A DNA stretch of 43,676 nucleotides, from positions 1-43,676 of the forward strand of contig DJSP01000086.1 of the NCBI GenBank assembly GCA_002438065.1, given 5' to 3'. A model generated the notes under the pieces. The model worked only from the letters and a program-made list of their open reading frames with translations. It had not been told where the DNA came from and searched no databases. The stretch comes from Bacillales bacterium UBA6331 (GTDB taxonomy: Bacteria > Bacillota_I > Bacilli_A > RF39 > UBA660). Position numbers and translations under genes: made by a program. Of this stretch, positions 1,488 to 29,814 are shown piece after piece (within the stretch, counting starts at the first letter, position 1; the number at the start of each line of letters is the position of its first letter).

Positions 1488-4400
1488 ATGGTTTTAACTA
1501 GTGAAGAGATAAAATCTAAAGATTTTGAATTATTAAAATTATATCAAAATCAAGTTAATGAACTATTACAAAAAGATAAATATATCTCTAAAAAAGAATA
1601 TCTAAAAATATATAAACAGCTAACACCCATAATTCATAAACTAAAAATAATGGAAAAAGAATCTATGCTTGAACTATGGTGTCAAAAAAATAAAGTAGAT
1701 TACTACGAAATAAAAAGTCTCATTAACTTCTATACAAACACTAATAAAATAATAGATGATAAAAACACACTTTATGTAAATAAACATTTAGAACTTGATA
1801 AAGAATACTTAGACACTATTCTTGCTAAAGAAGATCCAAATATTAAATTAGATAAAGAACAAAGAAAAGTAATCCTTTCTGATGAAGATTATACATTAGT
1901 GGTTGCGGGTGCAGGATCAGGAAAAACAACTACCATTGAAGCCAAAGTTAAATATCTTATTGAAAAACAGCGCATTGATCCAAATCGTATCTTAATAATC
2001 TCCTTTACTAGAAAAGCAACTAATGAATTACAAACAAGATGTAAGACCCTAGGGCTTCCTGCTAAAATATCAACCTTTCACTCTCTAGCTAATCAAGTTA
2101 TTGGATCAAATGAAGAATCCCATCATCAAATCACAACTGGAGATTTAATGTTCAAAACCATTAAAGAATATCTTATTAACAATGAAAACGATGAAGATTT
2201 TGTTAAAAAGATTCTTCTATTCTTTGCCAGTTACTTAAATGTCCCATTTGGCGAAGAAAATATAAGTTTATTATTCTCAGAACTAGCTAAAAACGATTGC
2301 ACAACCTTAAAATCTGACATAACAGCATCTCTTAATGAATTTAATAAAAAACAAATCAGTCAAAAATATACTTTAAAAAATGAAAAAGTTAAAAGTGTTG
2401 AAGAATGTCGTATTGCAAATTTCTTGTACATTAATGGTATAGACTATGAATATGAACCTGTCTATAAATATTGTTTTACCAATACAACAAAACCATACTG
2501 CCCAGATTTTATAATTAGACAATATGATAAAGAAATATATCTTGAACATTTTGGAATATCCGAAAGTGGAGAAAATCCTAGATATACTAAAGAAGAACTA
2601 GAACTTTACAAAAAACATGTTAATGACAAAATAATTTTCCACAGAGAACACGGGACTAAATTAATTTATACATTTTCAAAATATAATGACCATAAAGATA
2701 CAATAACTCATTTAAAAGAAGAATTAATAAAAGCAGGCATCTCATTCGAACCTAAAAGTCAAAAAGCAATTTACAAAGCTATCTTATCGAATTTAGAAGA
2801 TAAATATTTTAACAAACTAGTTCAGTTAATATGCGTCTTTATTTCTAGGTTCAAAACTAATAATTTTAGCCCATCCAAATTTGATGAATGGAAAATAACA
2901 TTATCAGATGAAAGAACAAAATTATTTATAAATATTTGTTATGAATGTTATTTAGCCTACTCTAGCGTATTAAAAAATACGGGTAGTATCGACTTTGAAG
3001 ATATGATTAATAATGCCTCTAATATATTAGATAAACTAATTGAAAAACACGAGGAGCTTCCATACGACTATATATTTGTTGATGAATATCAAGATATCTC
3101 TCTTCAAAGATTTAATTTATGTGAAAAATTATCAAAATGTTCTAATGCAAAAATAGTGGCTGTCGGCGATGACTGGCAATCCATATTTAAATTTAGCGGT
3201 GCTCAAATTGATTTATTTACTAAGTTTGAACAAACAATGGGTTATGCCAACATTCAAAAAATAACTAATACATACCGCAATTCCCAAGAACTAATTGATA
3301 TAGCCGGCAACTTTGTAATGGCAAATAAATATCAAATATCCAAAAAATTAAAATCAAATAAATCTATAAAAAATCCCGTTATTTTAATGACATATAATGA
3401 TAAAACAGACTACATCTCATACAAAGAAGGCGATACAGTAACAAAGAGATTAGGAAAAGCAATTGAACATGCCCTAGACAATATCGTTAAAGAAAATGGA
3501 ATAAATCAAAAAGTATTATTTATTGGTCGTTATGGATTTGAACAATATATATTATCAAATTATAAAAAAGGATTTACTTATAAAAGAAATAAACTATATT
3601 CCAACAAATATCCCAAATTAAACATTACCTTTTTAACTGCTCACTCATCAAAAGGATTAACATATGACAACGTAATAATAATGAATGGTAAAGATGCAAT
3701 TCTAGGTTTCCCATCAAGAATAGTCGATGATCCTGTTATGAAATTAGTTATCAAAGATGAAGAAAATTTTGAATATGCCGAAGAAAGAAGACTATTCTAT
3801 GTTGCTTTAACTAGAACCAAAAATAAAGTTTATATCTTAACTCCTAAATATAAACCATCGAAATTTATTTTAGAACTAAATAATAACTATAAAAATATTC
3901 TAGTAGTTGGTGAAAAAATAGAGTCAGAAGTTAACTATGGAAATTTACTAAAATGCCCTTTATGTGGCTATCCATTACAAAGAAGAAGTAATAATAACTT
4001 TAAAATCCCTGGAGAAATATGGATATGTTCAAATGATCCTGAAGTATGTGGATATATAACCAATAATCCAAGAGGTGGAAAAATGTCTATTTCTAAATGT
4101 CCAAAATGCTCTGATGGTTATTTGATTGTTAAAAAAGTTCAAAATTCAACTAAAGAAAAATATATTTTAGGTTGTACTAACTATTTAAAAGATGGAACCG
4201 GTTGTAATGCCTATTTAGTTGATAATAAATATACCCAAGATTTAGAACTAGTTAATTTAGAATTTTATGATAAAAATACTGATATTCAAAAATTAACTTA
4301 TTGTAATAAAAACTTTATAGAACTAGTAAACGCTATTATATATATTGTAAAATATTATGAAAAATATAAATTTAAAATAAGTCCTAGAACAATCTTAGAA

Positions 4401-4634
4401 ATATTAGTAGGTGCAAGTAGCAAACAAGTAGACGTATTCAAATTATATAAAAATAAATATTATGGTTATTTAAAAGTAGATGACAGGCAAAAATATTGGG
4501 CATTATTTAAAGCATTAACCAAAGAAGAAATTTTAAATATAGATGAAAGTAATTATAGTAATGTGACTGTCTCAAAAGATAAATTAACTTTAGATGATTA
4601 TAAAATTATTTATGCATCAATTAAAATAAGATAA
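1488..4634 (+). CDS. UvrD/Rep (SF1, helicase IV-like) DNA helicase with an embedded PD-(D/E)xK-like nuclease insert and C-terminal topoisomerase-type zinc ribbons
   Basis: Helicase motifs: Walker A AGAGSGKTTT, motif II FVDEYQD, VGDDWQSIF, TYRNSQ, TAHSSKGLTYD, VALTRTK. Insert between motifs I and II: NFLYINGIDYEYEP...CPDFII...IYLEHFG. Zinc ribbons: CPLCGYPL...CSNDPEVCGY and CPKCSDGYL...GCTNY...GCN. SD AAGAGG before the ATG. Confidence 0.85.
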   Translation: MVLTSEEIKSKDFELLKLYQNQVNELLQKDKYISKKEYLKIYKQLTPIIHKLKIMEKESMLELWCQKNKVDYYEIKSLINFYTNTNKIIDDKNTLYVNKHLELDKEYLDTILAKEDPNIKLDKEQRKVILSDEDYTLVVAGAGSGKTTTIEAKVKYLIEKQRIDPNRILIISFTRKATNELQTRCKTLGLPAKISTFHSLANQVIGSNEESHHQITTGDLMFKTIKEYLINNENDEDFVKKILLFFASYLNVPFGEENISLLFSELAKNDCTTLKSDITASLNEFNKKQISQKYTLKNEKVKSVEECRIANFLYINGIDYEYEPVYKYCFTNTTKPYCPDFIIRQYDKEIYLEHFGISESGENPRYTKEELELYKKHVNDKIIFHREHGTKLIYTFSKYNDHKDTITHLKEELIKAGISFEPKSQKAIYKAILSNLEDKYFNKLVQLICVFISRFKTNNFSPSKFDEWKITLSDERTKLFINICYECYLAYSSVLKNTGSIDFEDMINNASNILDKLIEKHEELPYDYIFVDEYQDISLQRFNLCEKLSKCSNAKIVAVGDDWQSIFKFSGAQIDLFTKFEQTMGYANIQKITNTYRNSQELIDIAGNFVMANKYQISKKLKSNKSIKNPVILMTYNDKTDYISYKEGDTVTKRLGKAIEHALDNIVKENGINQKVLFIGRYGFEQYILSNYKKGFTYKRNKLYSNKYPKLNITFLTAHSSKGLTYDNVIIMNGKDAILGFPSRIVDDPVMKLVIKDEENFEYAEERRLFYVALTRTKNKVYILTPKYKPSKFILELNNNYKNILVVGEKIESEVNYGNLLKCPLCGYPLQRRSNNNFKIPGEIWICSNDPEVCGYITNNPRGGKMSISKCPKCSDGYLIVKKVQNSTKEKYILGCTNYLKDGTGCNAYLVDNKYTQDLELVNLEFYDKNTDIQKLTYCNKNFIELVNAIIYIVKYYEKYKFKISPRTILEILVGASSKQVDVFKLYKNKYYGYLKVDDRQKYWALFKALTKEEILNIDESNYSNVTVSKDKLTLDDYKIIYASIKIR

Positions 4635-19357: not shown

Positions 19358-19710
19358 GGGGTCGTTTATGGTTTCGACAGGGTATAGTTTTGTATTATAT
19401 GCAGTGGTGGTTAAACCTAAATAACAAACAGTTAAAATAACTGACAATACAAATTATAATACTGCTTTAGCATTTGCCTAATTAAAGGTAGCGAGCACTG
19501 GCCTAAAACTAAATCTACAGAGTTTTAACGCTGGTTCATAATAGTAGATTATATTTAATAAATTGCTTAGTTTATTAAACGAATCCTATAAGCTTAGTTA
19601 ATGATATTTTGATGGTTTTTTACCATTAATGAAACAACAAATCATCTAAACTTGTAGATTATAATATGAAAGTATCTTGGACAAGGGTTCAACTCCCTTC
19701 GACTCCACCA
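19358..19710 (+). ncRNA. ssrA: tmRNA (transfer-messenger RNA)
   Basis: The 5-prime GGGGTCGTTTATGGTTTCGACAGGG pairs with the 3-prime CGACTCCACCA, giving a 7-bp acceptor stem with a G3:U pair. T-arm GGGTTCAACTCCC. Internal tag frame ends ...DNTNYNTALAFA-TAA (stop at 19479-19481). Confidence 0.95.
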
Positions 19711-20769: not shown

Positions 20770-21594
20770 ATGGAAAAAGTTAAAAAATTGTTATTACCTG
20801 TAGTTCTTATTATTATTTTACTATTACCAATTATTATTAATTATGTAAATAACAAAAAGATTTCAGTAATTTCATATGATAAATACACATCTAATGTGTC
20901 AAAAGAAAAAGTAACACTTACATATTTTGGTGATACTAATTCAGAAGAATATGCTAAAATCAAAGAAGAATTACTTAATTTAAAAAGTAAATATTCAATT
21001 GAAGTTAGTGCTGTAAATACACCGAAATTAAGTACAGAAGAAAAACAAAAATTAACTAGTTCAAATGAAAAGTTTAATAGCAAATCAGTTTTTGTTATAA
21101 CACAAGATGGTAATACAGTTAAAGTAGTAGATAAAGAAAAAGAAAATGTTAACTTAGATGCTCAATTAAACAAATATATTAACAATGTAATTCCAGATGA
21201 TGAAATTGCTTATAAAACAGTTTCAACATATAAAGAATTTATGAAATTATATAAGAGTAAAAAAGTAACAATGCATGTTTTTGGACGTAACTCATGTTAT
21301 TATTGTAATATCTTTAAACCAGTATATAACGATGTTGCAGCTGAAAATAATTTAGATATTTACTACTATGATTCAGACAGCTTTAATAGTGATGAATATA
21401 ATAAAATATTAAATTCAGGTATAAACATTCCAGCCGAATGTACATCGTCAAAAGAGGAAACTCCTTTATCATCAGGTTTTGGAACACCACTAACATTATA
21501 TTTAAAAAATGGTAAAGTAGTAGGATGTATTTCTGGATATGTTAACAAAGAAAAGTTAGAAACTAAGTTAAAATCAGTTGGAATGATGAAATAA
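20770..21594 (+). CDS. Membrane-anchored thioredoxin-fold protein
   Basis: N-terminal TM helix. C-terminal thioredoxin-like region with a CxxC motif (FGRNSCYYCNIFKP). Confidence 0.65.
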   Translation: MEKVKKLLLPVVLIIILLLPIIINYVNNKKISVISYDKYTSNVSKEKVTLTYFGDTNSEEYAKIKEELLNLKSKYSIEVSAVNTPKLSTEEKQKLTSSNEKFNSKSVFVITQDGNTVKVVDKEKENVNLDAQLNKYINNVIPDDEIAYKTVSTYKEFMKLYKSKKVTMHVFGRNSCYYCNIFKPVYNDVAAENNLDIYYYDSDSFNSDEYNKILNSGINIPAECTSSKEETPLSSGFGTPLTLYLKNGKVVGCISGYVNKEKLETKLKSVGMMK

Positions 21595-21606
21595 AGGAGA
21601 ATATAA

Positions 21607-22047
21607 ATGGCGTCTACTTATGAAATTATAAAAAAATTTAAAGATAAATATCCCGGCACAATATGTTGGAGAATTAAAAAACATGCAAAATTAGTTGACG
21701 AAAATTTATATCCCGATGAAGTTGTAAATTATGCCTTTGCTGCTCAAAATAATGCAACTCATGGAAGTATATTTGATACAGCCGTACTAGCTATCACCAA
21801 TAAAAGACTTATAATTGCTCAAGATTATATTTTGGTAGGATATGATTTAAACTCAATTACACCAGACTTATACAACGATATGCAAATACATGCTGGAATT
21901 ATTTGGGGAATGATAATTATTGATACAATGAAAGAAACTATTTATTTTTCTAATATATCAAAAAAAGCATTACCAGAAATTCAAAAAGAAATAACATCAT
22001 ACATGATGGAAGCAAAAGCAAAATACTACAAAAAAGAAGTAAAGTAA
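21607..22047 (+). CDS. Bacterial PH-domain (YokE-like) protein
   Basis: Resembles bacterial PH-like domain proteins (IFDTAVLAITNKRLIIAQ...). Recall-based call only. Confidence 0.45.
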   Translation: MASTYEIIKKFKDKYPGTICWRIKKHAKLVDENLYPDEVVNYAFAAQNNATHGSIFDTAVLAITNKRLIIAQDYILVGYDLNSITPDLYNDMQIHAGIIWGMIIIDTMKETIYFSNISKKALPEIQKEITSYMMEAKAKYYKKEVK

Positions 22048-22050
22048 ATA

Positions 22051-22077
22051 AAGAGTTCAATTAAGAATTCTTTTTTT
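22051..22077 (+). terminator. Rho-independent terminator
   Basis: AAGAGTTC-AATTAA-GAATTCTT (one G:U pair) followed by T-run. Confidence 0.65.
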
Positions 22078-22092
22078 CTAAAATGGAGAAGT

Positions 22093-23202
22093 ATGAAAAA
22101 AATTAATAAAAACGTTAAATTTATATTTGTATTACTATTATTAGTAATTATCTATGTCATCATACTATACACGCCAAAAAACTATGAAATAGATTACATT
22201 ATTAATAAAGTAAAAATAAATGAAAAATATGACAAATACACTAAAAAATATACCTTTATTTTAACCTATGAAAATACCGATTATCCTCTTATAGTAAATT
22301 CTAAATATTTAAAAAAACGTAAATTAATTGAAAATATTAAAATAGTATCAGACGAAAAAGATACTTGTTTAAACACTGACTATCTAGATAATAATAAAAT
22401 TATTTGTAGCGATTCATCAGGCTTAAAAGATTATCACCTAATTAATGATAAACTTTATAGTGAAAATTACGAGAAAGTTATTAAACCAATCAAAGAAACA
22501 ACTTATGAAAATATTAAGATTTATAATAACGACGAAACATATCTTATTTGGAATTATAATGGCTATTTAAAGATATCTGAAAATAATGAAAAAATTAATA
22601 TTTTAAACGAAGAAAAATATAATAATCAATCAACCTATCAAAATGATCGTTACCTAATTATTCCAGACTATGACTCATCATATTACTTTAAGAAAATATA
22701 TATTTATGACACCGAAAAGAATAATTTGTCAAATATAACCTTTAATTATGAAATATCATACAATCTTTTATATCTTGGAACATTTAAAAATAAAGTTTAC
22801 TTTTTAGATCTTAAAAACAAGAACGAATATGAATTAAATTTAAAAAAGAAAATAATTAAACTTTTAAATGAAAAAAATAATTATGGATTATTTCTAAATG
22901 GTAAGAAATTAGAACACGTTAAAGTTGATACTTTAATTAAAAATGAAGAGATATTTGCTAGTGAAATTAACAATAATTATAGTTTACAAGATAATACATT
23001 ATATAAAAATATAGATAGATATAAACTAAAAGTAAGTAATAAAAAAATAACTGAAATAGTTAGAATAATAGATGATACAGTTTATTACTTAGTAGATGAT
23101 ACCTTATATAGATATAATGAAGAAACCGGAGAAGAACAACTACTTAAATACAAAGAATGGAAATATAATTATCAAAATCAAATATTTATCTTTAACAAAT
23201 AA
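22093..23202 (+). CDS. Hypothetical membrane-anchored protein
   Basis: N-terminal TM helix and a repetitive Asn/Tyr/Lys-rich ectodomain. No confident family. Confidence 0.5.
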   Translation: MKKINKNVKFIFVLLLLVIIYVIILYTPKNYEIDYIINKVKINEKYDKYTKKYTFILTYENTDYPLIVNSKYLKKRKLIENIKIVSDEKDTCLNTDYLDNNKIICSDSSGLKDYHLINDKLYSENYEKVIKPIKETTYENIKIYNNDETYLIWNYNGYLKISENNEKINILNEEKYNNQSTYQNDRYLIIPDYDSSYYFKKIYIYDTEKNNLSNITFNYEISYNLLYLGTFKNKVYFLDLKNKNEYELNLKKKIIKLLNEKNNYGLFLNGKKLEHVKVDTLIKNEEIFASEINNNYSLQDNTLYKNIDRYKLKVSNKKITEIVRIIDDTVYYLVDDTLYRYNEETGEEQLLKYKEWKYNYQNQIFIFNK

Positions 23203-23238
23203 TTAATTTAAGAATATCCTATACTAGGGGATGAAAAA

Positions 23239-23574
23239 ATGATTGATATGTATAATGTAAATCAAGATGCCAATAATTACTTTGATTATTATAAAATAAA
23301 AAAGGGAGATAATTTATACCAGATAGGTAAAAGTTACAATGTGAATCCTGCTTTAATTGCAATTCTTAACGGTCTAAATCTAAATGATTATATTTATCCA
23401 AATGAAACTATAATGGTTCCTAAAGAAGGATATTCATATTACGTAACTAAATCAGGAGATACCCTTAACTTAGTAGCAAATACATTTAATACCAGTGTAT
23501 CAAACATTCTAAGAAACAACGAAACAATCTATTTACAAGAAGGTCAATTAATAGTTAATAAAATAAGCGAATAG
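23239..23574 (+). CDS. Small protein with two LysM peptidoglycan-binding domains
   Basis: Two LysM repeats: YKIKKGDNLYQIGKSYNVNPALIAILNGL and YVTKSGDTLNLVANTFNTSVSNILRNN. Confidence 0.8.
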   Translation: MIDMYNVNQDANNYFDYYKIKKGDNLYQIGKSYNVNPALIAILNGLNLNDYIYPNETIMVPKEGYSYYVTKSGDTLNLVANTFNTSVSNILRNNETIYLQEGQLIVNKISE

Positions 23575-23629
23575 TTTATTTTATTTTTTTTGCATGATAT
23601 AATTTATTTAAGATAAGGGGCCACAATTT

Positions 23630-25222
23630 ATGATTTTAAAAAAACCATATGCATTTTTAATAAAGAATTTCAAAATAATACACATAATTATCTTTTTATT
23701 AGCACTCTTAATTAATGACTATTATGTTAAGATTTATAAATTCTTTAAAAATTATTCATCAAATAATTTCTATGATTACAATATTGCCAAAGATTATTTA
23801 CCAACATTTATATTCATAGCCGTAATCTTCCTAATCGGATTTTTAAGCATAATGTTTTATTTAATGGCAAAAAAGAAAAAACCAACTAAATTATACATTT
23901 TTTCTATAATTTATTATATTGTATTATTAATATCAATGATGTTTATTTATAACAAAATAAATACATTATATGAAGCAACACTAACCCAAAGAGTAAGCAG
24001 ATTTTATCAAGATATATACTTTCTTTTAAATTTACCCCATTACTATTTTTTATTTATGTATTTAGTAAGAGGTATTGGCTTCGATATTAAAAAATTCAAT
24101 TTTAGTAAAGATATGCAAGAACTTGAAATAAAAGCAGAAGATAACGAAGAATTTGAGTTTGAGTTTGGTAAAGATAATTATTTAATAAAAAGAAAAATTC
24201 ACAGATTATATCGTGAAATAATTATCTATTATAAAGAAAATAAATTTTTAATAAATATAGTCGGAGGTTCAATTCTCTCAATTATTCTAGTGACAATTTT
24301 TATTAACACATCTATTTCAATTCACAAGTATCATGTTGGAAGTTCTTTAAAAGCTGATAAGTTTATTTATAAATTAAATAATGCCTATGTAACATCTTAT
24401 GACTATAAAAATAAACAAATTAGTAGTACTAATAAATATATCATATTAGATATGACTTTAACAAACAAAGGCAAATATATTTTAAAACCTGAAGAAATGT
24501 ACATAATTTATAATGGCAACAAAGAATCAGTATACAAATCAAGCCTTTCAAATAGTTTTTCCGATTTAGGAACAGTCTATAATGGCGATTTAATTCCTAA
24601 TACACCAACAAATTTATTATTTATTTATGAAGTACCAAAGGAAGCTAAAGTAAATAATTTAAAACTTATGGTATATAAAGGATATGAATATAAAAATGGA
24701 GTTACTAATAACATTTATCGTGAATATAAATTTAGTGCTAATAATTTAGATAAAGAAATAAAAACGCAAAAATCATCATTAAATACACTAAACTATCTCG
24801 GAAGAACTCTATATGGTAACACAACCATAAAAATTAACAATATTGAAATAAAAGAAAGATATGAATATACTTATCAAAAATGTATAGATGAAAATAATTG
24901 CCAAACATTAACAGATATAATTATTCCTGATAATCGTAATCAATATGATCTCTTAATTGTTGATTATGAATTAAATGTTGATGAATCATCTCTTCTTGCT
25001 AGAAGCACTAATAATGATATTCAATCAATTATTAATAAATTTTCTAAGATAAATTATAATATTAACAATAGTGAAAGAACATCAACTATATATGGTAAAA
25101 CATACTCAAATTTAGAAAACAAAATATTTTTTGATATTCCAAATAACATTAAAGATAAATCAGCATCAAAAAGTTATGTAATTAAAACTAGAGAAAATGA
25201 GTATTCATATGACTTTAACTAG
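23630..25222 (+). CDS. Hypothetical polytopic membrane protein with a large extracytoplasmic C-terminal domain
   Basis: Several N-terminal hydrophobic helices, a further helix near aa 205-225, then a soluble domain. SD AAGGGG. Confidence 0.55.
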   Translation: MILKKPYAFLIKNFKIIHIIIFLLALLINDYYVKIYKFFKNYSSNNFYDYNIAKDYLPTFIFIAVIFLIGFLSIMFYLMAKKKKPTKLYIFSIIYYIVLLISMMFIYNKINTLYEATLTQRVSRFYQDIYFLLNLPHYYFLFMYLVRGIGFDIKKFNFSKDMQELEIKAEDNEEFEFEFGKDNYLIKRKIHRLYREIIIYYKENKFLINIVGGSILSIILVTIFINTSISIHKYHVGSSLKADKFIYKLNNAYVTSYDYKNKQISSTNKYIILDMTLTNKGKYILKPEEMYIIYNGNKESVYKSSLSNSFSDLGTVYNGDLIPNTPTNLLFIYEVPKEAKVNNLKLMVYKGYEYKNGVTNNIYREYKFSANNLDKEIKTQKSSLNTLNYLGRTLYGNTTIKINNIEIKERYEYTYQKCIDENNCQTLTDIIIPDNRNQYDLLIVDYELNVDESSLLARSTNNDIQSIINKFSKINYNINNSERTSTIYGKTYSNLENKIFFDIPNNIKDKSASKSYVIKTRENEYSYDFN

Positions 25223-25301: not shown

Positions 25302-25375
25302 GGGGCTTTAGCCAAGTGGTAAGGCAAGGGACTGCAACTCCCTGAGCACCGGTTCAAATCCGGTAGGCCCCTCCA
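25302..25375 (+). tRNA. tRNA-Cys (anticodon GCA)
   Basis: Cloverleaf: acceptor GGGGCTT/AGGCCCC, anticodon loop CTGCAAC, T-arm CCGGTTCAAATCCGG, encoded CCA. TTGACT-17-TACAAT promoter at about 25233-25261. Confidence 0.93.
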
Positions 25376-25421
25376 TTATAAAAAATTGCTCGAACTTTAA
25401 CGCTTGAGCTTAATAAAAAAA

Positions 25422-25453
25422 ATATCAATTTCAAAATGAAGTTGATATTTTTT
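25422..25453 (+). terminator. Rho-independent terminator after tRNA-Cys
   Basis: ATATCAATTTC-AAAAT-GAAGTTGATAT (one mismatch) followed by T5. Confidence 0.65.
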
Positions 25454-25585
25454 AAAATTATAGTTGAAATAGGTAAGTTAAAAAATAAAGCAGGTAGCAA
25501 TAAGTTTAAAATAACAGCTCAAAAATGGATTAAAGAAAAAATGGAATAATTTAATCAAAAATCCACTTTTTTCATGTGCAATTTT

Positions 25586-27205
25586 TTAATTTTTTTTGCG
25601 TATGTTATTTTGCAAAAATATTACATTTCCAGTTGAAATATTCAAAGAATAATCAGCATTTAAAATTTCATTATATTTTCTATTATGTGAAATACTAATT
25701 ATTGTTCCTGGATATGATTCTACAAGTTCATAAATTAAATCTAATGCTTCCTTATCTAAATGATTAGTAATTTCATCTAAAACAAGAACGTTTATTTTAT
25801 GAAAAGCAATTTTAACTAAGTTTACTCTTGTTCTTTGTCCAGGAGATAACATAAAATATTTTTTATCTTTACCATTGTAATTAAAACCAAAATTACTAAG
25901 TAAGGTAAAAACTAATGAGGATTCTACTTTATCTAAACCTGATGTTATATATTCGTACACACTAATATTTTTATTATCTATAATAGTATCTTGTGATATA
26001 TATCCTATTTTAACATCGTTGCCAATTATAACTTTTCCTTCAATAGGTTTAATTAAACCAAGTATTGTTTTAATAAATGTTGTTTTACCACTGCCATTCG
26101 GTCCTTTGATATTAATTTTACTTCCAAAATTTATGTTTAAGTTAATAGGAAGAGTTTGAAATGAATCATATCCACATATTAAGTTATCTATATAAATGTT
26201 CTTGTTTCCTTTTTCATTATCTAATAAGTCTAAGAAAAAATTAATTTTTTTTCTTTCTTGGAATGTTGGAATATCTATCTCTTCCAATGCTTTTGACAAC
26301 TTAGAGACTTCAGAAGAACGAGTTCTTTCTTTAGCAAAATTGTTAGCAATTTTATCATTGTCATTGTGTGCTTTAGAATATGTGCCTCGATTTGACCAAT
26401 CCTTAGCCTTCTGTAATCTAGCCTTAATTCTCTTTCGTTCTTCTATTGCACTTAAATAATTTAGTTTATTTTTCTGATATTCAAGATCTTTTTGTTTTAA
26501 ATAATCTTCATAACTTAAATTATATTCATTTAACATACCATCAGAAATTTCAAATATTTTATTAACAATATTATTCAAAAATGCTTCATCATGTGAAACT
26601 ATTATAATGGTTTTTTTTAGATTACGTAAATAATTTTCCAACCAGTTAATTGCTTCGATATCCAGATTATTCGTCGGTTCATCCAATAATAAAATATCTC
26701 CGTTACTAAGAAGCATAGTACACAATAAAACTTTAATTTTTTCTCCGCCAGAAAGAGTAAAAATTTTACTATCTAAACTTTTATTTAAATGTAAACCATT
26801 TATTATATTTTGCAAATTATTTTCAAATGAATAACCATCAAGTAGTAAAAATTTATTTAATATATCACTATATTCAATCATATTATTTTCTGTTAAATTA
26901 TTTTCAAGTTCATGAAGTCTGATTTCTAATTTTTCAATACCTGTTTGATTTTTTATATAAACTAATATTGAAAAATTGTCAAATTCATGAGATATTTCTT
27001 GTTTTAAATATGCGATGGTTTCATTTTCTAATTTAATTTTTCCAGAGTCTAATTGTAGTTCATTTGCTAGAACTTTAAGAAGAGTAGATTTACCACTTCC
27101 ATTTGACCCTACTAATCCAACTTTTTCACCTTGTGCTAAATGAAAACTTATATTTTTTAATAATTCATTGTTATTAAATTCAATTTTTAAATTACTTACC
27201 TGCAT
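25586..27205 (-). CDS. ABC-F family ATPase (two nucleotide-binding domains joined by a basic helical linker, no transmembrane domain)
   Basis: NBD1: GSNGSGKST, LSGGEKIK, LLLDEPTNNLD. Linker of ~100 aa rich in K/R/E (EERKRIKARLQKAKDW...). NBD2: GPNGSGKTT, LSPGQRTR, LVLDEITNHLD. No hydrophobic helices. The ATG overlaps the upstream gene by 14 nt, with AAGGAG 10 nt upstream. Confidence 0.9.
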   Translation of the reverse strand: MQVSNLKIEFNNNELLKNISFHLAQGEKVGLVGSNGSGKSTLLKVLANELQLDSGKIKLENETIAYLKQEISHEFDNFSILVYIKNQTGIEKLEIRLHELENNLTENNMIEYSDILNKFLLLDGYSFENNLQNIINGLHLNKSLDSKIFTLSGGEKIKVLLCTMLLSNGDILLLDEPTNNLDIEAINWLENYLRNLKKTIIIVSHDEAFLNNIVNKIFEISDGMLNEYNLSYEDYLKQKDLEYQKNKLNYLSAIEERKRIKARLQKAKDWSNRGTYSKAHNDNDKIANNFAKERTRSSEVSKLSKALEEIDIPTFQERKKINFFLDLLDNEKGNKNIYIDNLICGYDSFQTLPINLNINFGSKINIKGPNGSGKTTFIKTILGLIKPIEGKVIIGNDVKIGYISQDTIIDNKNISVYEYITSGLDKVESSLVFTLLSNFGFNYNGKDKKYFMLSPGQRTRVNLVKIAFHKINVLVLDEITNHLDKEALDLIYELVESYPGTIISISHNRKYNEILNADYSLNISTGNVIFLQNNIRKKN

Positions 27206-27875
27206 CTATTCCACACTCCTTACATTTAGAATTTTTTTTCCAATTTATAATTTCTGCTTGATATGTGAATAAATTAAACATTAAAGTCTTACCGACTAAA
27301 CTTGTTTCCTTATATTTAGCAAAATAATTAATAATTTCATTGCTCACTAAACTAGAGATTAATAAACATAGAGGTCCAAATGATGGTACTGGTTCAACAT
27401 TATTTAAAGGTACTTCAAAACTTTGTTTTTCAATACAACTCAAACATGCAGTTGTTTTAGGCACAACAAAAGGTCCAATCATAGCAACATATTCCGAAAA
27501 GCTGCAAAATAATACTGGCTTACCATTTTTAACACATAATTTATTTATTAATCTTCTTATTATTCTTTGAGGTTTATCAACCGTGCATAATACAAAATCT
27601 GCTAGTTTAATTTCATTTATAATATCCTCTTCCTTGATTATTTTTAAATTTTTACATTTAACCAGACTGTTTGTTAACTTTTCTTTCATTATTTCTGTCT
27701 TTAATTTTCCCAAATCATTACAATTATATGGAAATTGTCTTATTAAATTAGATTCATCAACGACATCATAATCAACTAAAGTAAAATTATTAAATCCAGC
27801 TCTTTCTAAAACTATTGCTACATTGGCTCCAATACCGCCTAATCCAAGAATTAAAATATTTTTATATTTAAAATA
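27192..27875 (-). CDS. E1-like (ThiF/MoeB/MccB-type) adenylyltransferase domain. This frame is open but has no start codon before its nucleotide-binding loop, so it must be joined to 27851-28222 by a -1 frame change.
   Basis: Frame is open from 27875. It encodes ILILGLGGIGANVAIVLERAGFNNFTLVDYDVVDESNLIRQ (GxGxxG plus D.D.V..SNL.RQ), DLGKLKTEIMKEKL, and paired CxxC motifs (CLSC ... CKEC, ~74 residues apart). The track ORF (27192-27713) begins at an internal TTG. Confidence 0.85.
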   Translation of the reverse strand, partial: YFKYKNILILGLGGIGANVAIVLERAGFNNFTLVDYDVVDESNLIRQFPYNCNDLGKLKTEIMKEKLTNSLVKCKNLKIIKEEDIINEIKLADFVLCTVDKPQRIIRRLINKLCVKNGKPVLFCSFSEYVAMIGPFVVPKTTACLSCIEKQSFEVPLNNVEPVPSFGPLCLLISSLVSNEIINYFAKYKETSLVGKTLMFNLFTYQAEIINWKKNSKCKECGIDAGK

Positions 27876-28222
27876 TTAATTAAATATTTTATATTCATCA
27901 TTAAATATACTGAAAACAAATTTTGTCTATTATATTTTGTATCATTAATCAATCTTTGATATTTTTCAAATTCTATAATGAATTTTTCACCTACTAAATA
28001 ATCTCTTGCCGATTTAATTTCCTTCTTGTTAATACCAGTTTCTTCATTAACCTTATTAATTAAATCATTTATAGATATTGGCTTTTGTATATTATTGAAA
28101 ATGCTTAAAATACCTTCATCGTCGTATTCAATTTCTTTTCCAGTATCAGTAAAATTTCCCATTCTGATAATTTTATTGATATTATCTATATAAAATGGTT
28201 TGTTTTTATTTATTATTAACAT
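27851..28222 (-). CDS. PqqD/RRE-like peptide-recognition domain plus the start of the E1 domain (N-terminal part of the frameshifted RRE-E1 protein)
   Basis: Begins MLIINKNKPFYIDN... at the ATG 4 nt after GGAGG. A winged-helix-like segment (ISINDLINKVNEETGINKKEIKSARDYLVGEKFII) resembles PqqD-type RiPP recognition elements. It ends with the E1 N-terminal motif KYNRQNLF and stops (TAA 27851-27853) just after an A5 run. Confidence 0.65.
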   Translation of the reverse strand: MLIINKNKPFYIDNINKIIRMGNFTDTGKEIEYDDEGILSIFNNIQKPISINDLINKVNEETGINKKEIKSARDYLVGEKFIIEFEKYQRLINDTKYNRQNLFSVYLMMNIKYLINILNIKIF

Positions 28223-28240
28223 ATAACCTCCAAAAATAAT

Positions 28241-28262
28241 AGAGTTCAACACGTTGAACTCT
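28241..28262 (-). terminator. Intercistronic hairpin (probably a leaky terminator or attenuator) between the small ORF and the RRE-E1 gene
   Basis: Perfect inverted repeat AGAGTTCAAC/GTTGAACTCT. On the mRNA it is followed by AUUAUUUUUGGAGG, so the U-rich tract runs into the next gene's SD. Confidence 0.6.
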
Positions 28263-28281
28263 ATACTGTAATCAAAACCAA

Positions 28282-28347
28282 TTAACAGTTTTGATCAACG
28301 TGACAAGCAAATTTTACAACTCTTAGTTTTTTAACGCCAAATTTCAT
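28282..28347 (-). CDS. Unannotated 21-aa ORF, MKFGVKKLRVVKFACHVDQNC; candidate precursor peptide (or leader peptide)
   Basis: ATG 9 nt after a perfect AGGAGG. About 50 nt downstream of a near-consensus promoter. Followed by a hairpin and then a peptide-recognition-domain enzyme gene. Too short for the ORF track. Confidence 0.6.
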   Translation of the reverse strand: MKFGVKKLRVVKFACHVDQNC

Positions 28348-28403
28348 AACAATTTTCCTCCTTCAATTGAAAGCACAATATAATGATTCGACTTCTAGCA
28401 ATT

Positions 28404-28431
28404 ATTATACATTTTTTTATATTTTTGTCAA
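28404..28431 (-). promoter_or_regulatory. Near-consensus sigma-A promoter driving the small ORF operon
   Basis: On the minus strand: TTGACA (28431-28426), 16-nt spacer ending in TG, TATAAT (28409-28404). Confidence 0.65.
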
Positions 28432-28884
28432 TTTATTTGGCAAGTTTGACCAATTATGTAATAATAATTTTTTAAATAAAAATATTTATGCTAATATGAC
28501 TTTAATGGGGTGAAAATATATAATGCAATTAAATCTTAACGAAAATATATAAAATGTTATTCTAAATATTTTAAAAAAGTGATTTTCCAAATACGTATAT
28601 GTATGTTATGAATTAAATATATTGCTTTTATGCGTAAAATAAAAGAAAAGTGAATACTATAAATTTTATTATATATGAAAAAAATATTTTAATTTAAAGA
28701 ATATAAAAGTTTTGGTTACTTGGTTAAGTGATATTAAAATCATAAAAAAATATGCATCTATTTATATATAAATTGATATTAAAATATTAAATTTTTAAAA
28801 TTAGTTAATCTATATCAAAAATTAACTAAAAACATAAATATTTATGTTAAAATATAATATATAATTAATGAAAGAGGAATATCC

Positions 28885-29814
28885 ATGAAAACATGCGTAT
28901 TAATTTATAACCCCAATAGTGGCCACGTATTTAAAACAAAATATCTAAAAGAATATAAAGATATTTTAATAAAGAATGGTTATAATCCTAAATTTATTGC
29001 TACATGTTATCAAGGTCACGCCAAAGAAATTATATCTCACCTAGAAAAAGTAGATTTAGTTATAAGCATGGGTGGAGATGGTACCTTTAACGAAATAATT
29101 TCAGGTAATTTAGAACGAAAAGAGCCATTAATTGTATCCCATATTCCTGTTGGAACTACCAATGACATAGGCGTCATGTTTGGCTATGGAAAAGATGTTA
29201 AAAATAATTTAAAACTTTTACTTAAAGGTTGCATCAAAGAAATGGATATTTGCCTAATAAATAATCAACCATTCGTCTATGTTGCCGGTTTTGGTAAATT
29301 TATGCAAGTTCCTTATCAAACACCTCGTAAATTAAAGAAAAAATATGGATACATTGCCTACCTAATTGAAGGAATAAAAGACTACTTTAGCCCTACCAAG
29401 TTATATAAAATAAAATATAACGTTAATGGTATATCTAAAACAGGATATTACTCATTTATATTAATATCTAATGCAAATCGAATCGCAGGAATAAATAACT
29501 TCTATCGCAATGTTAAACTAGATGATGACCAATTTGAAGTCTTACTATGCAACTTTAATCGCCGCATTGATTTAATTAAAACATTCTCATTATTAATGAC
29601 TATGGATGCATCTAAAGTATCAGGCGTAGAATTCTATAAAACCAATCATCTTGAATTAGAGTTTGAAGATTATCCTAAGCATGGATGGTGTATCGATGGA
29701 GAAAAATTAAAATATCGAACTCTAAAATATGACATTAAAAATATTAATCATATCAAAATCATGTTACCAACTAAAAATATAAATAAAATATTTGTAAATA
29801 AAAAAATTGATTAA
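28885..29814 (+). CDS. Diacylglycerol/lipid kinase family protein (DagK/YegS-like)
   Basis: GGDGT motif (VISMGGDGTFNEI) and PVGTTND. SD AAAGAGG. Confidence 0.88.
   Translation: MKTCVLIYNPNSGHVFKTKYLKEYKDILIKNGYNPKFIATCYQGHAKEIISHLEKVDLVISMGGDGTFNEIISGNLERKEPLIVSHIPVGTTNDIGVMFGYGKDVKNNLKLLLKGCIKEMDICLINNQPFVYVAGFGKFMQVPYQTPRKLKKKYGYIAYLIEGIKDYFSPTKLYKIKYNVNGISKTGYYSFILISNANRIAGINNFYRNVKLDDDQFEVLLCNFNRRIDLIKTFSLLMTMDASKVSGVEFYKTNHLELEFEDYPKHGWCIDGEKLKYRTLKYDIKNINHIKIMLPTKNINKIFVNKKID

Follow-up and report, generated by a model that had tools for sequence, protein, structure and literature searches.

What is a cassette that joins a 21-codon ORF, an E1-like enzyme and a ribosome-binding type of ATPase doing in an uncultured gut bacterium, and do its three genes belong together? 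The window we analyzed is a 43,676-nucleotide stretch of contig DJSP01000086.1 (assembly GCA_002438065.1, Bacillales bacterium UBA6331), and the locus lies on its minus strand between positions 25586 and 28431. The original prediction read it as an undescribed peptide-modification operon. Every sequence feature that it listed is present, so the observation itself is confirmed, and the arrangement is a real, widely conserved three-gene cassette that recurs in more than 60 independent contigs of low-GC gut "Bacilli/Tenericutes". In this genome, however, the enzyme gene is broken by two mutations.

The locus begins with a sigma-70-type promoter, TTGACA-16-TATAAT, at 28431..28404 (-), which is the only 12/12 consensus match in 25400-28900; comparable promoters sit upstream of the peptide gene in homologous loci. 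A small 5'-UTR stem-loop follows at 28370..28395 (-). It is weak in this window (AGAAG...CUUUC), but a stem-loop of 5-9 bp with differing sequence lies between the promoter and the Shine-Dalgarno sequence in most homologous loci, for example GAAAGC...GCTTTC in locus L004 and ACTTATC...GATAAGT in locus L026 (L numbers denote individual loci of the comparative set). We infer that it is probably an mRNA-stabilizing 5' hairpin. The Shine-Dalgarno sequence AGGAGG (28362-28357) precedes the 21-codon ORF at 28347..28282 (-), which encodes MKFGVKKLRVVKFACHVDQNC.

Between the small ORF and the enzyme gene is an intrinsic terminator (28230..28264, -), with an 11-bp stem and 4-nt loop at 28264..28239, the tail TATTTTT, and a T-run that abuts the Shine-Dalgarno sequence of the enzyme gene. 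It is the only terminator-like site in the region, where shuffled sequences give a mean of 0.4. A hairpin plus T-run is present at this position in about 28 distinct homologous loci with unrelated stem sequences, and the mccA-mccB terminator has the same arrangement (PMC4231749). The layout of small ORF, terminator and ABC-F gene also resembles the attenuators of vmlR, vga and msr-type genes, and in about half of the loci the stem starts no more than 11 nt after the stop codon, within a ribosome footprint. We therefore considered whether the ORF is a regulatory arrest peptide, on which ribosome stalling would control read-through into a resistance ABC-F, with the E1-like gene as an unrelated passenger. 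There is no consistent antiterminator, however, and the distance from stop codon to stem varies from 0 to 22 nt. The N-terminal half of the peptide is also conserved, and the enzyme carries a peptide-binding domain. The ABC-F gene occurs without the ORF and without a leader in L042, whereas the same peptide core and enzyme occur without any ABC-F in L054, L057, L058, L082 and L100. The comparative data already contradict this reading, which we consider very improbable.

The E1-like gene (28222..27192, -) contains the GLGGIG, SNLIRQ, CLSC and CKEC motifs, and matches Pfam ThiF at 2e-38. Intact homologues are 343 aa long, and the ATP-binding and Zn tetracysteine residues are invariant in 35 homologues. 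The best PDB sequence hit is MccB (3e-27). An AF2 model (pLDDT 92) gives a full-length Foldseek match to MccB with TM 0.80-0.82 that includes the N-terminal peptide-clamp/RRE; PaaA is next, and ThiF and MoeB match only the C-terminal domain. The protein is thus a two-domain ThiF-like adenylyltransferase (TLAT), as the original prediction of an RRE-fused MccB-like E1 had it. That it might instead be an ordinary ThiF/MoeB sulfur-carrier activating enzyme of thiamin or molybdopterin metabolism, with the small ORF as noise, is refuted by the comparative and structural data: although the protein matches the NCBIfam MoeB/ThiF models as well as Pfam ThiF, all MoeB/ThiF equivalog scores lie far below their cut-offs (86 against 266 bits, and similar), the extra N-terminal domain matches MccB and PaaA, no ThiS/MoaD gene is nearby, and the small ORF is conserved at the amino-acid level in more than 60 loci.

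The original prediction implied a single lesion in this gene, but there are two. A DNA alignment to intact, 88%-identical homologues shows that one T is missing from the run at 27916-27913 and that the restored frame contains a nonsense codon, TAA, at 27878-27876, where homologues have CAA. The identical 1270-bp allele occurs in four independent assemblies, indicating a real pseudogene allele and not a sequencing error, and we are nearly certain that the TLAT gene is a pseudogene here. This particular locus is most likely non-functional for modification, a point that the original prediction missed.

Is the peptide gene truly coupled to the enzyme? The small ORF, hairpin, E1 and ABC-F genes recur together in 33 species-representative genomes, and the peptide gene is conserved in every homologous locus with an intact 5' side. 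The consensus is M-K-[FI]-x-[VI]-[KR]-K-[LIV]-x3-[KQ]-F-[ASE]-C-H-V-D-[QE]-[NH]-C, and synonymous codon variation in the invariant residues shows selection at the amino-acid level. A blind scan for the DNA of the core pattern alone returned 43 metagenome stretches, of which 40 carry such an ORF in the recurring arrangement, with a TLAT gene 45-100 nt downstream almost every time, wherever the contig extends. The same C-H-V-D-(Q/E)-x-C core also occurs with divergent TLATs in unrelated clades (24-57% GC), where the third gene is a PqqD-fused M50/daptide-like intramembrane protease (L054, L058), an ABC-2 exporter (L058) or a TMD-type ABC exporter (L100) instead of ABC-F. Leader charge and RRE-domain charge are roughly complementary between clades. 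We are highly confident, therefore, that peptide and TLAT are a RiPP precursor/maturase pair. A SAM-methyltransferase-fold gene is adjacent in 11 loci and shares contigs with the TLAT; it is an ancestral fourth member of the cluster, overlooked in the original prediction, that has been lost here.

That MccB is the closest solved structure raises the possibility of a microcin C-type cluster, in which the TLAT would attach a nucleotide to the peptide's C-terminus through an N-P bond to give a Trojan-horse aminoacyl-tRNA-synthetase inhibitor. The short precursor followed by a terminator mirrors mccA, and there is no leader peptidase, as in McC. However, the C-terminal residue is an invariant Cys and the penultimate residue varies (N/H/R), so the Asn-succinimide route is unavailable. 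No MccC, MccD, MccE or MccF homologues are present, identity to MccB is only 23-25%, and published sequence similarity networks separate McC-type TLATs from those whose precursors do not end in Asn (bioRxiv 10.1101/2024.05.13.593846). This reading is very unlikely, in agreement with the original prediction that the locus differs from microcin C-like clusters.

The third gene encodes an intact ABC-F ATPase (27205..25586, -; 539 aa, two NBDs, no TMD) that overlaps the TLAT stop by 14 nt. All Walker A/B, signature and H-loop motifs are intact, and the linker tip is conserved. It forms its own subfamily, 31-33% identical to any named ABC-F. Its best profile match is NCBIfam NF000355, 'ribosomal protection-like ABC-F', at 378.6 bits, just below the cut-off of 380, against at most 271 bits for the YbiT, Uup and EttA models. 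The linker is 164 aa, against 172 in Vga(C) and 143 in YbiT, with the extension at the tip as in Vga(C). ABC-F lies immediately downstream of the TLAT in all loci of this clade that extend far enough, and so is genetically linked rather than a stray housekeeping gene.

The pattern of decay bears on its role. The TLAT and peptide have been lost or have decayed independently at least seven times (in the window, L009, L014, L032, L037, L039, L042, L044 and L046, loci scattered over the ABC-F tree), while no locus has an intact TLAT with a decayed ABC-F, and ABC-F was never seen lost. That is an orphan-immunity pattern, and ABC-Fs acting in self-resistance of producers or in regulation are established for antibiotic clusters (PMC8546547, PMC10201436). 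Conversely, ABC-F orthologues at 61-65% identity persist without any TLAT, once directly after KsgA-like and other rRNA-modification genes (L042; Methyltrans_SAM, PseudoU_synth_2, RrnaAD), which fits a housekeeping translation factor as well as it fits orphan immunity. It is possible, then, though less likely than our main reading, that peptide and TLAT make a RiPP while ABC-F is a lineage-specific translation factor or regulator that merely shares the operon, or that it transduces a ribosome-borne signal, as LmrC does (PMC8546547). The product would then be a signal, a metal-binding peptide or a cofactor-like molecule acting inside the cell or in communication. The core is almost invariant from 24% to 57% GC organisms, which is more typical of cofactor-like or signaling RiPPs (PQQ, mycofactocin) than of antibiotics; Cys-His-Asp-Cys is a classic metal-ligand set; the cassette has no exporter; and the related TLAT products enterofaecin and GRC are proposed quorum-sensing effectors (PMC12250964). 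Against this alternative, only about 33 of the species-representative genomes carry the module, which makes it accessory, the linker is ARE-like in length, the ABC-F subfamily is tied to the TLAT, with remnants of the TLAT 3' end lying upstream of 'orphan' ABC-Fs in L044 and L046, and the exporters or proteases of sister clades imply an extracellular product.

Taken together, we favor, with a probability of roughly 0.58, a TLAT RiPP operon of a previously undescribed precursor family whose ABC-F protects the producer. Our analysis shows a strong promoter driving a short transcript that carries the precursor gene and ends at an intrinsic terminator, TLAT and ABC-F genes with overlapping coding regions immediately downstream, an obligate pairing of peptide and TLAT across several bacterial clades, and ABC-F as the constant third gene in the low-GC gut Bacilli clade. 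The remainder of the model is inferred from sequence and by analogy. Read-through of the terminator would transcribe the TLAT and ABC-F genes, and the 14-nt overlap would couple their translation. The RRE/peptide-clamp may bind the K/R-rich leader (V-[KR]-K-[LIV]), and the adenylation domain would use ATP to activate either the C-terminal carboxylate of Cys21 or the Asp18 side chain. A Cys thiol could then attack to give a small thiolactone-type macrocycle, by analogy with GrcB; this chemistry is tentative. In some lineages the methyltransferase-fold protein may tailor the product further. The product would act on the large ribosomal subunit, and the ARE-like ABC-F would shield the producer's ribosomes by target protection, a role we regard as about as likely as not. 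The clade has neither exporter nor leader peptidase in the cassette, so the model does not explain how a product would leave the cell, and because the sister clades carry no ABC-F, a ribosome target is not implied there. In this window the precursor and ABC-F genes are intact while the TLAT gene is dead, suggesting that the strain is most likely a non-producer that keeps the putatively protective ABC-F.

The interpretation originally offered is thus only partly supported: the conserved minimal peptide-modification cassette holds, as does the linked, ARE-like ABC-F, while a translation target and self-immunity are still inferences, strengthened by the asymmetric decay and weakened by the solitary ABC-F orthologues. 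No paper that we found describes this peptide family or a TLAT/ABC-F pairing. The enzyme class, by contrast, is known, since RRE-ThiF RiPP enzymes are now a recognized and actively mined superfamily with thiolactone, imide and indolylamide chemistries (PMC12250964, PMC12596934, PMC12150305), which the original prediction did not take into account.

Among known systems, the E. coli microcin C7 operon (mccABCDEF) shares the two-domain enzyme with its Zn tetracysteine, the very short precursor gene with a terminator before the enzyme gene, and the lack of a dedicated leader peptidase, but has a precursor ending in Asn and an MFS exporter where this uncultured low-GC gut Bacilli lineage has an ABC-F ATPase. 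GrcB of Streptococcus pneumoniae is the best precedent for the proposed chemistry: an RRE-ThiF enzyme acts on a precursor with a C-terminal Cys and an acidic residue a few positions upstream (Glu35...Cys39 in GrcA, Asp18...Cys21 here), making a side-chain-to-Cys thiolactone (PMC12250964, PMC12596934). The spacing here is D-x-x-C, not E-x-x-x-C, with an extra invariant Cys15-His16, and the cassette has no radical-SAM enzymes, stand-alone RRE, transporter or quorum-sensing regulator. EnfB of enterofaecin (WWIII-type) and IndF (NWYFI-type) provide a parallel in precursors of 21 residues, in an N-terminal [VI]-[RK]-K-x leader motif required for recognition ((V/I)RKA in EnfA), in the absence of a leader peptidase, and in the use of one ATP to activate the C-terminus as an acyl-AMP before intramolecular cyclization (bioRxiv 10.1101/2024.05.13.593846; PMC12150305). 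Their cores are WWIVI or NWYFI rather than CHVDQNC, their clusters carry several transporters and regulators where this one has none and an ABC-F instead, and none of the six published precursor types (WWIII, NWYFI, VEGR, NICxxxK, CxxxC, GxxQY) matches this peptide. Finally, the ABC-F resembles the ARE target-protection proteins (Vga, Lsa, VmlR, Msr) and the producer ABC-Fs (LmrC, OleB/CarA, Ard1) in its two NBDs joined by a long helical linker without a TMD, although its identity to them is low and any resistance it confers is inferred. Like LmrC and Ard1 it is encoded inside a biosynthetic cluster (PMC8546547, PMC10201436), here a RiPP/TLAT cluster rather than one for a macrolide, lincosamide or nucleoside.

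On the minus strand of the window, which is about 25% G+C, the gene arrangement described in the original prediction is confirmed in full. A perfect TTGACA-16-TATAAT promoter lies at 28431..28404 and is the only 12/12 match in 3.5 kb. It is followed by an AGGAGG element and a 21-codon ORF at 28347..28282 encoding MKFGVKKLRVVKFACHVDQNC, and then by a terminator hairpin at 28264..28239 with an 11-bp stem, a 4-nt loop and a T-run, the only terminator-like site in the region. The E1-like gene ends at 27192, and the 539-codon ABC-F gene (27205..25586) overlaps its stop by 14 nt. The E1-like gene is not merely frameshifted. The single-site repair at the A5 run that had been proposed for it gives an open frame, but one in which 17 residues are wrong, and alignment with intact 343-aa homologues shows two lesions located elsewhere: one T is missing from the run at 27916-27913, and in the restored frame there is a TAA at 27878-27876 where relatives have CAA. 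The same 1270-bp allele, carrying both lesions, is present in four independent assemblies from different samples, which rules out sequencing error and identifies a genuine pseudogene allele of a circulating lineage.

A scan of the locus against Rfam found only a tRNA-Cys(GCA) gene at 25302-25375 (+), convergent to and just downstream of the ABC-F gene, and hence no known leader or riboswitch. Although the precursor ends in an invariant Cys, flanking genes other than the E1-like and ABC-F genes are not shared between distant loci, in a comparison that did not include tRNA genes, and the adjacency looks coincidental. A run of poorly annotated genes at 20770-25222 (+) comprises a PedC-like/thioredoxin-fold protein, a bPH_3 protein, a 369-aa protein with no Pfam hit, a LysM protein and a 530-aa membrane protein. 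A PedC-like thioredoxin and an Rce1-like (CAAX protease/bacteriocin-immunity family) gene also flank the cassette in L040 (homologous loci are designated by L numbers), and a link to bacteriocin handling is possible. Farther away, the window carries a tmRNA gene at 19358-19710 (+) with the predicted tag peptide DNTNYNTALAFA, and at 1488-4634 (+) a 1048-aa UvrD-type helicase with C-terminal zinc-ribbon and RQC-like domains, an unusual domain combination.

The restored E1-like protein matches Pfam ThiF at 2e-38, whereas all MoeB/ThiF equivalog models score far below their cut-offs. The GLGGIG loop and residues D151, N159-Q163, K175 and D216 are invariant in 35 homologues, although in the window itself the reading frame is broken upstream of this domain. 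The best solved relative by sequence is MccB (3e-27, from residue 62 to the end), followed by MoeB, ThiF and PaaA. An AlphaFold model of the intact homologue P0003 from L001, which is 88% identical to the restored window gene, (pLDDT 92, pTM 0.90) matches MccB over both domains in a Foldseek alignment of about 355 columns (TM 0.80-0.82) and PaaA at TM 0.74, while ThiF and MoeB cover only the C-terminal domain. A PqqD/RRE-like N-terminal domain had been set beforehand as an expectation for this protein; the N-terminal domain has no PqqD hit in Pfam, and its identification as an RRE/peptide clamp fused to the adenylation domain comes from the predicted structure. The protein thus belongs to the class that recent literature calls ThiF-like adenylyltransferases (TLATs) (PMC12250964, PMC12596934, PMC12150305).

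The ABC-F protein has two ABC_tran domains with intact Walker A/B, signature and H-loop motifs, and no hydrophobic transmembrane domain is apparent on direct reading of its 539-aa sequence. It scores 378.6 bits on the NCBI 'ribosomal protection-like ABC-F' model NF000355, just under the cut-off of 380, against at most 271 bits for the YbiT, Uup and EttA models, and NCBI names an 84%-identical homologue 'ribosomal protection-like ABC-F family protein'. As in ARE-type proteins, in which an extended linker (ARD) reaches the peptidyl-transferase centre, the interdomain linker is long: 164 residues here, and 163-165 in the four family members whose first H-loop motif was assigned correctly, measured from H-loop 1 to Walker A 2. 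The corresponding distance is 172 in Vga(C), 150 in a staphylococcal ABC-F and 143 in YbiT. The extra residues align with the Vga(C) tip, and the tip is conserved within the family, although length alone does not prove function. We were unable to place the protein in a named subfamily. Hits in the PDB are roughly equidistant (YbiT, YheS, Uup, Sal-type, EttA, PoxtA and VmlR), plasmid and E. coli ABC-F proteins are all only 31-33% identical, and the best 120 hits of a homologue search were all at least 58% identical and so were uninformative about the boundary of the family. No assignment beyond 'ARE-like' was possible.

The module recurs widely. The TLAT has 148 homologue clusters at 90% identity; most full-length members are 337-360 aa, with identities from 88% down to 30%. 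In a search of one genome per species we found 33 loci, nearly all in low-GC gut MAGs labelled Bacilli, Tenericutes, Erysipelotrichaceae or Clostridium sp. CAG:628, with a few bins carrying other labels (Muribaculaceae, Sphaerochaetaceae), from hosts that include human, rabbit, sheep and deer. In every one of these loci that extends far enough, the ABC-F gene follows the TLAT gene, either overlapping it or separated by a gap of a few to about 40 nt, while the flanking genes differ completely between distant loci. The small ORF is present in every locus with an intact 5' side, with the consensus M-K-[FI]-x-[VI]-[KR]-K-[LIV]-x3-[KQ]-F-[ASE]-C-H-V-D-[QE]-[NH]-C. Synonymous variation occurs in the invariant codons and both TAA and TAG stops are used, so selection acts on the peptide. 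A terminator hairpin with unrelated stem sequences follows the ORF in essentially all loci, and a small 5'-UTR stem-loop precedes the Shine-Dalgarno sequence in most. As an unbiased test, we scanned metagenome contigs for the degenerate DNA pattern of the core alone. Of the 43 stretches returned, 40 are such ORFs, and a TLAT gene starts 45-100 nt downstream wherever the contig continues.

The most informative comparison comes from other clades, in which the same core is paired with divergent TLATs in the absence of ABC-F. In L054 (24% G+C) the precursor is MTIEVKEVEKVETTCHVDENC, and the TLAT gene is followed by a gene for a 381-aa PqqD-fused, M50/daptide-like intramembrane HExxH protease (1244-2389). 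In L058 (28%) the precursor is MELDIEEIEEVETTCHVDQRC, and the same protease (2939-4054) is accompanied by an ABC-2 exporter nearby. These membrane proteins, of about 375 aa with an N-terminal PqqD-like domain, give weak hits to Peptidase_M50 and to the daptide intramembrane metalloprotease, and are probably the leader peptidase for the CHVDxxC core. In L100 and L070 (about 31%) the precursor is MIKSVKKVKAINDTPLLCHVDQNC, and a TMD-type ABC exporter follows in L100, whereas L070 ends within the TLAT gene. The contigs of L057 and L101 (50-57%; MITIEVKPVEEVSTTCHVDQNC) end at or within the TLAT gene, and that of L082 (25%; MIKNIKKMTKEEAIAVTCHVDQNC) ends within it. Peptide plus TLAT is thus the conserved functional pair, and the third gene is clade-specific. 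This refutes the idea that the ORF is only a leader peptide for ABC-F, as would be expected of a transcription attenuator. In further disagreement with attenuation, ABC-F also occurs without the peptide, and a search for antiterminators found no consistent pairing of the 5' arm of the terminator with upstream sequence. The gene content of the sister clades implies that there the product is processed and exported. Leader charge and RRE-domain charge are roughly complementary between clades, but the sample is small and this is only suggestive.

A fourth gene adds to the reading of the locus as a biosynthetic cluster. A Cys-rich protein of about 215 aa lies divergently upstream, or just downstream, of the cassette in 11 loci, about a third of those found and including the most divergent members (for example L012 3115-3753 (-), L014 3049-3702 (-) and L031 3050-3700 (-)). 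It has no Pfam, NCBIfam or PDB sequence matches, and its family (57 clusters) shares contigs with the TLAT. Only its predicted structure (pLDDT 95) suggested an identity, a class I SAM-methyltransferase fold, with matches that include small-molecule N- and O-methyltransferases and the plantazolicin methyltransferase at E about 1e-7 to 1e-6 and TM about 0.5. It is a plausible tailoring enzyme. The gene is absent from the window, where a roughly 450-nt AT-rich non-coding gap (28432-28884) separates the cassette promoter from a divergent diacylglycerol-kinase-family gene. In L014 and L065 this position holds the methyltransferase-fold gene, and L009 keeps a 71-codon remnant; the gap is probably a deletion scar, although tblastn finds no remnant in the window.

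The biosynthetic genes have decayed repeatedly next to an intact ABC-F gene. In the window lineage the TLAT carries the frameshift and nonsense codon and the peptide gene is intact. In L009 the TLAT has multiple frameshifts and the peptide is internally deleted; L014 has a frameshift; in L032 the N-terminal domain and the peptide are deleted; and L039 shows a frameshift and 5' loss. In L037 (~700-1110) the 5' part of the TLAT gene and the precursor gene have been replaced by a YoeB-like toxin gene (…RINYQHRLVYEVDESNKEIFILRMW), and the remaining TLAT fragment is frameshifted. Only the last 80-120 codons of the TLAT remain in L046 and L047, only about 20 nt remain in L044 and L045, and no trace is left in L042 and L043. 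These loci are scattered over the ABC-F tree, so the losses are independent. In contrast, no locus with an intact TLAT has a decayed ABC-F. Two metagenome contigs appeared to break the linkage, but L064 (1245-1925) switches from ABC-F to an FtsE-like sequence exactly at the Walker A motif and is an assembly chimera, and L093 has only 1.8x coverage. Loss of production with retention of protection is the classic signature of orphan immunity. It is, however, equally expected if ABC-F has an autonomous role, and L042 (188-5108) speaks for a translation-related or resistance role independent of the peptide: there, an ABC-F orthologue (62% identical; its 90% cluster has 534 member sequences) lies directly after genes for Methyltrans_SAM, a pseudouridine synthase and a KsgA/Erm-family RrnaAD methyltransferase, and before TetR and MMPL genes.

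Taken together, our analyses establish the operon architecture, the class of the enzyme, the obligate pairing of peptide and TLAT, the linkage of ABC-F to the TLAT in this clade, and the pseudogene state of the TLAT in the window. The remainder of the mechanism is inferred. The terminator may yield an abundant short precursor mRNA and a minor read-through transcript for TLAT and ABC-F, as shown for mccA (PMC4231749). The RRE would bind the V-[KR]-K-[LIV] leader, comparable to the (V/I)RKA motif that EnfB requires in its 21-residue precursor (bioRxiv 10.1101/2024.05.13.593846). In ATP-dependent modification of the precursor, the adenylation domain would activate the C-terminal carboxylate or Asp18, and a Cys thiol would close a small ring, by analogy with GrcB (a Glu35-Cys39 thiolactone) and with EnfB/IndF (cyclisation through the C-terminal acyl-AMP) (PMC12250964, PMC12596934, PMC12150305). 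The product would then hit the 50S subunit and the ABC-F would confer protection, for which the cluster-encoded ABC-Fs LmrC and Ard1 are precedents (PMC8546547, PMC10201436). In the window the TLAT cannot be made, so this strain is most likely a non-producer. The original interpretation of the locus is therefore supported only in part: the RiPP cassette is strongly supported, whereas ABC-F as immunity and the ribosome as target are plausible inferences from sequence and gene context alone.

It is possible to go further and to speculate that the CHVD(Q/E)xC peptides are a new class of TLAT-made, cyclised RiPPs that bind the large ribosomal subunit, and that the linked ABC-F is a new antibiotic-resistance (target-protection) subfamily dedicated to a ribosomally made peptide. 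We consider this somewhat less likely than not (probability roughly 0.4). In this view, uncultured human and animal gut Bacilli would be engaged in dynamics between producers and immune non-producers, with the strain of the window among the latter. If the reading is right, this would be the first RiPP cluster that uses an ABC-F target-protection protein; the pairing would predict the target, the ribosome, of an uncharacterised natural product from bacteria that cannot yet be grown, and it would add a new ABC-F subfamily to the gut resistome. It would also add a TLAT substrate family whose unusually invariant Cys/His/Asp/Cys core is tractable for in vitro reconstitution from synthetic genes, and the repeated decay of the biosynthetic genes with retention of ABC-F would offer a natural experiment on bacteriocin 'cheating' in the gut. 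Even if ABC-F is not immunity, the conserved coupling of a peptide maturase with a ribosome-binding ATPase would point to an unknown link between a small modified peptide and translation.

The enzyme itself belongs to a known and actively mined superfamily: in a profile search of 1.84 billion representative proteins, 738 scored at E <= 1e-30 and form a continuum of two-domain relatives. In the literature we searched, no paper contains the peptide sequences or links a TLAT or MccB with an ABC-F, and we infer that published RefSeq-based mining would largely miss these MAG-only lineages. The cassette does not fit the microcin C-type clusters, in which the precursor ends in the Asn required for the succinimide and N-P bond. 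The C-terminal residue is Cys in all of the roughly 70 precursors and the penultimate residue is N, H or R; only the TLAT and ABC-F are shared between loci, and no MFS, GNAT or S66 peptidase gene corresponding to the MccC exporter or the MccD/E/F tailoring and immunity functions is conserved. With respect to the GRC-type thiolactone RiPPs, which combine an acidic residue and a C-terminal Cys in the core with the radical-SAM partners GrcC/D and a stand-alone RRE, an invariant Asp18 and an invariant C-terminal Cys21 are present here, and no radical-SAM or stand-alone RRE genes were found in any locus. None of the published precursor types (Asn-terminal McC, EEN pantocin, GRC, WWIII, NWYFI, VEGR, NICxxxK, CxxxC and GxxQY) matches CHVDxxC. 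What is apparently new, therefore, is the precursor family and a cluster architecture that joins a TLAT of a known superfamily to an ABC-F, here represented by a decayed specimen.
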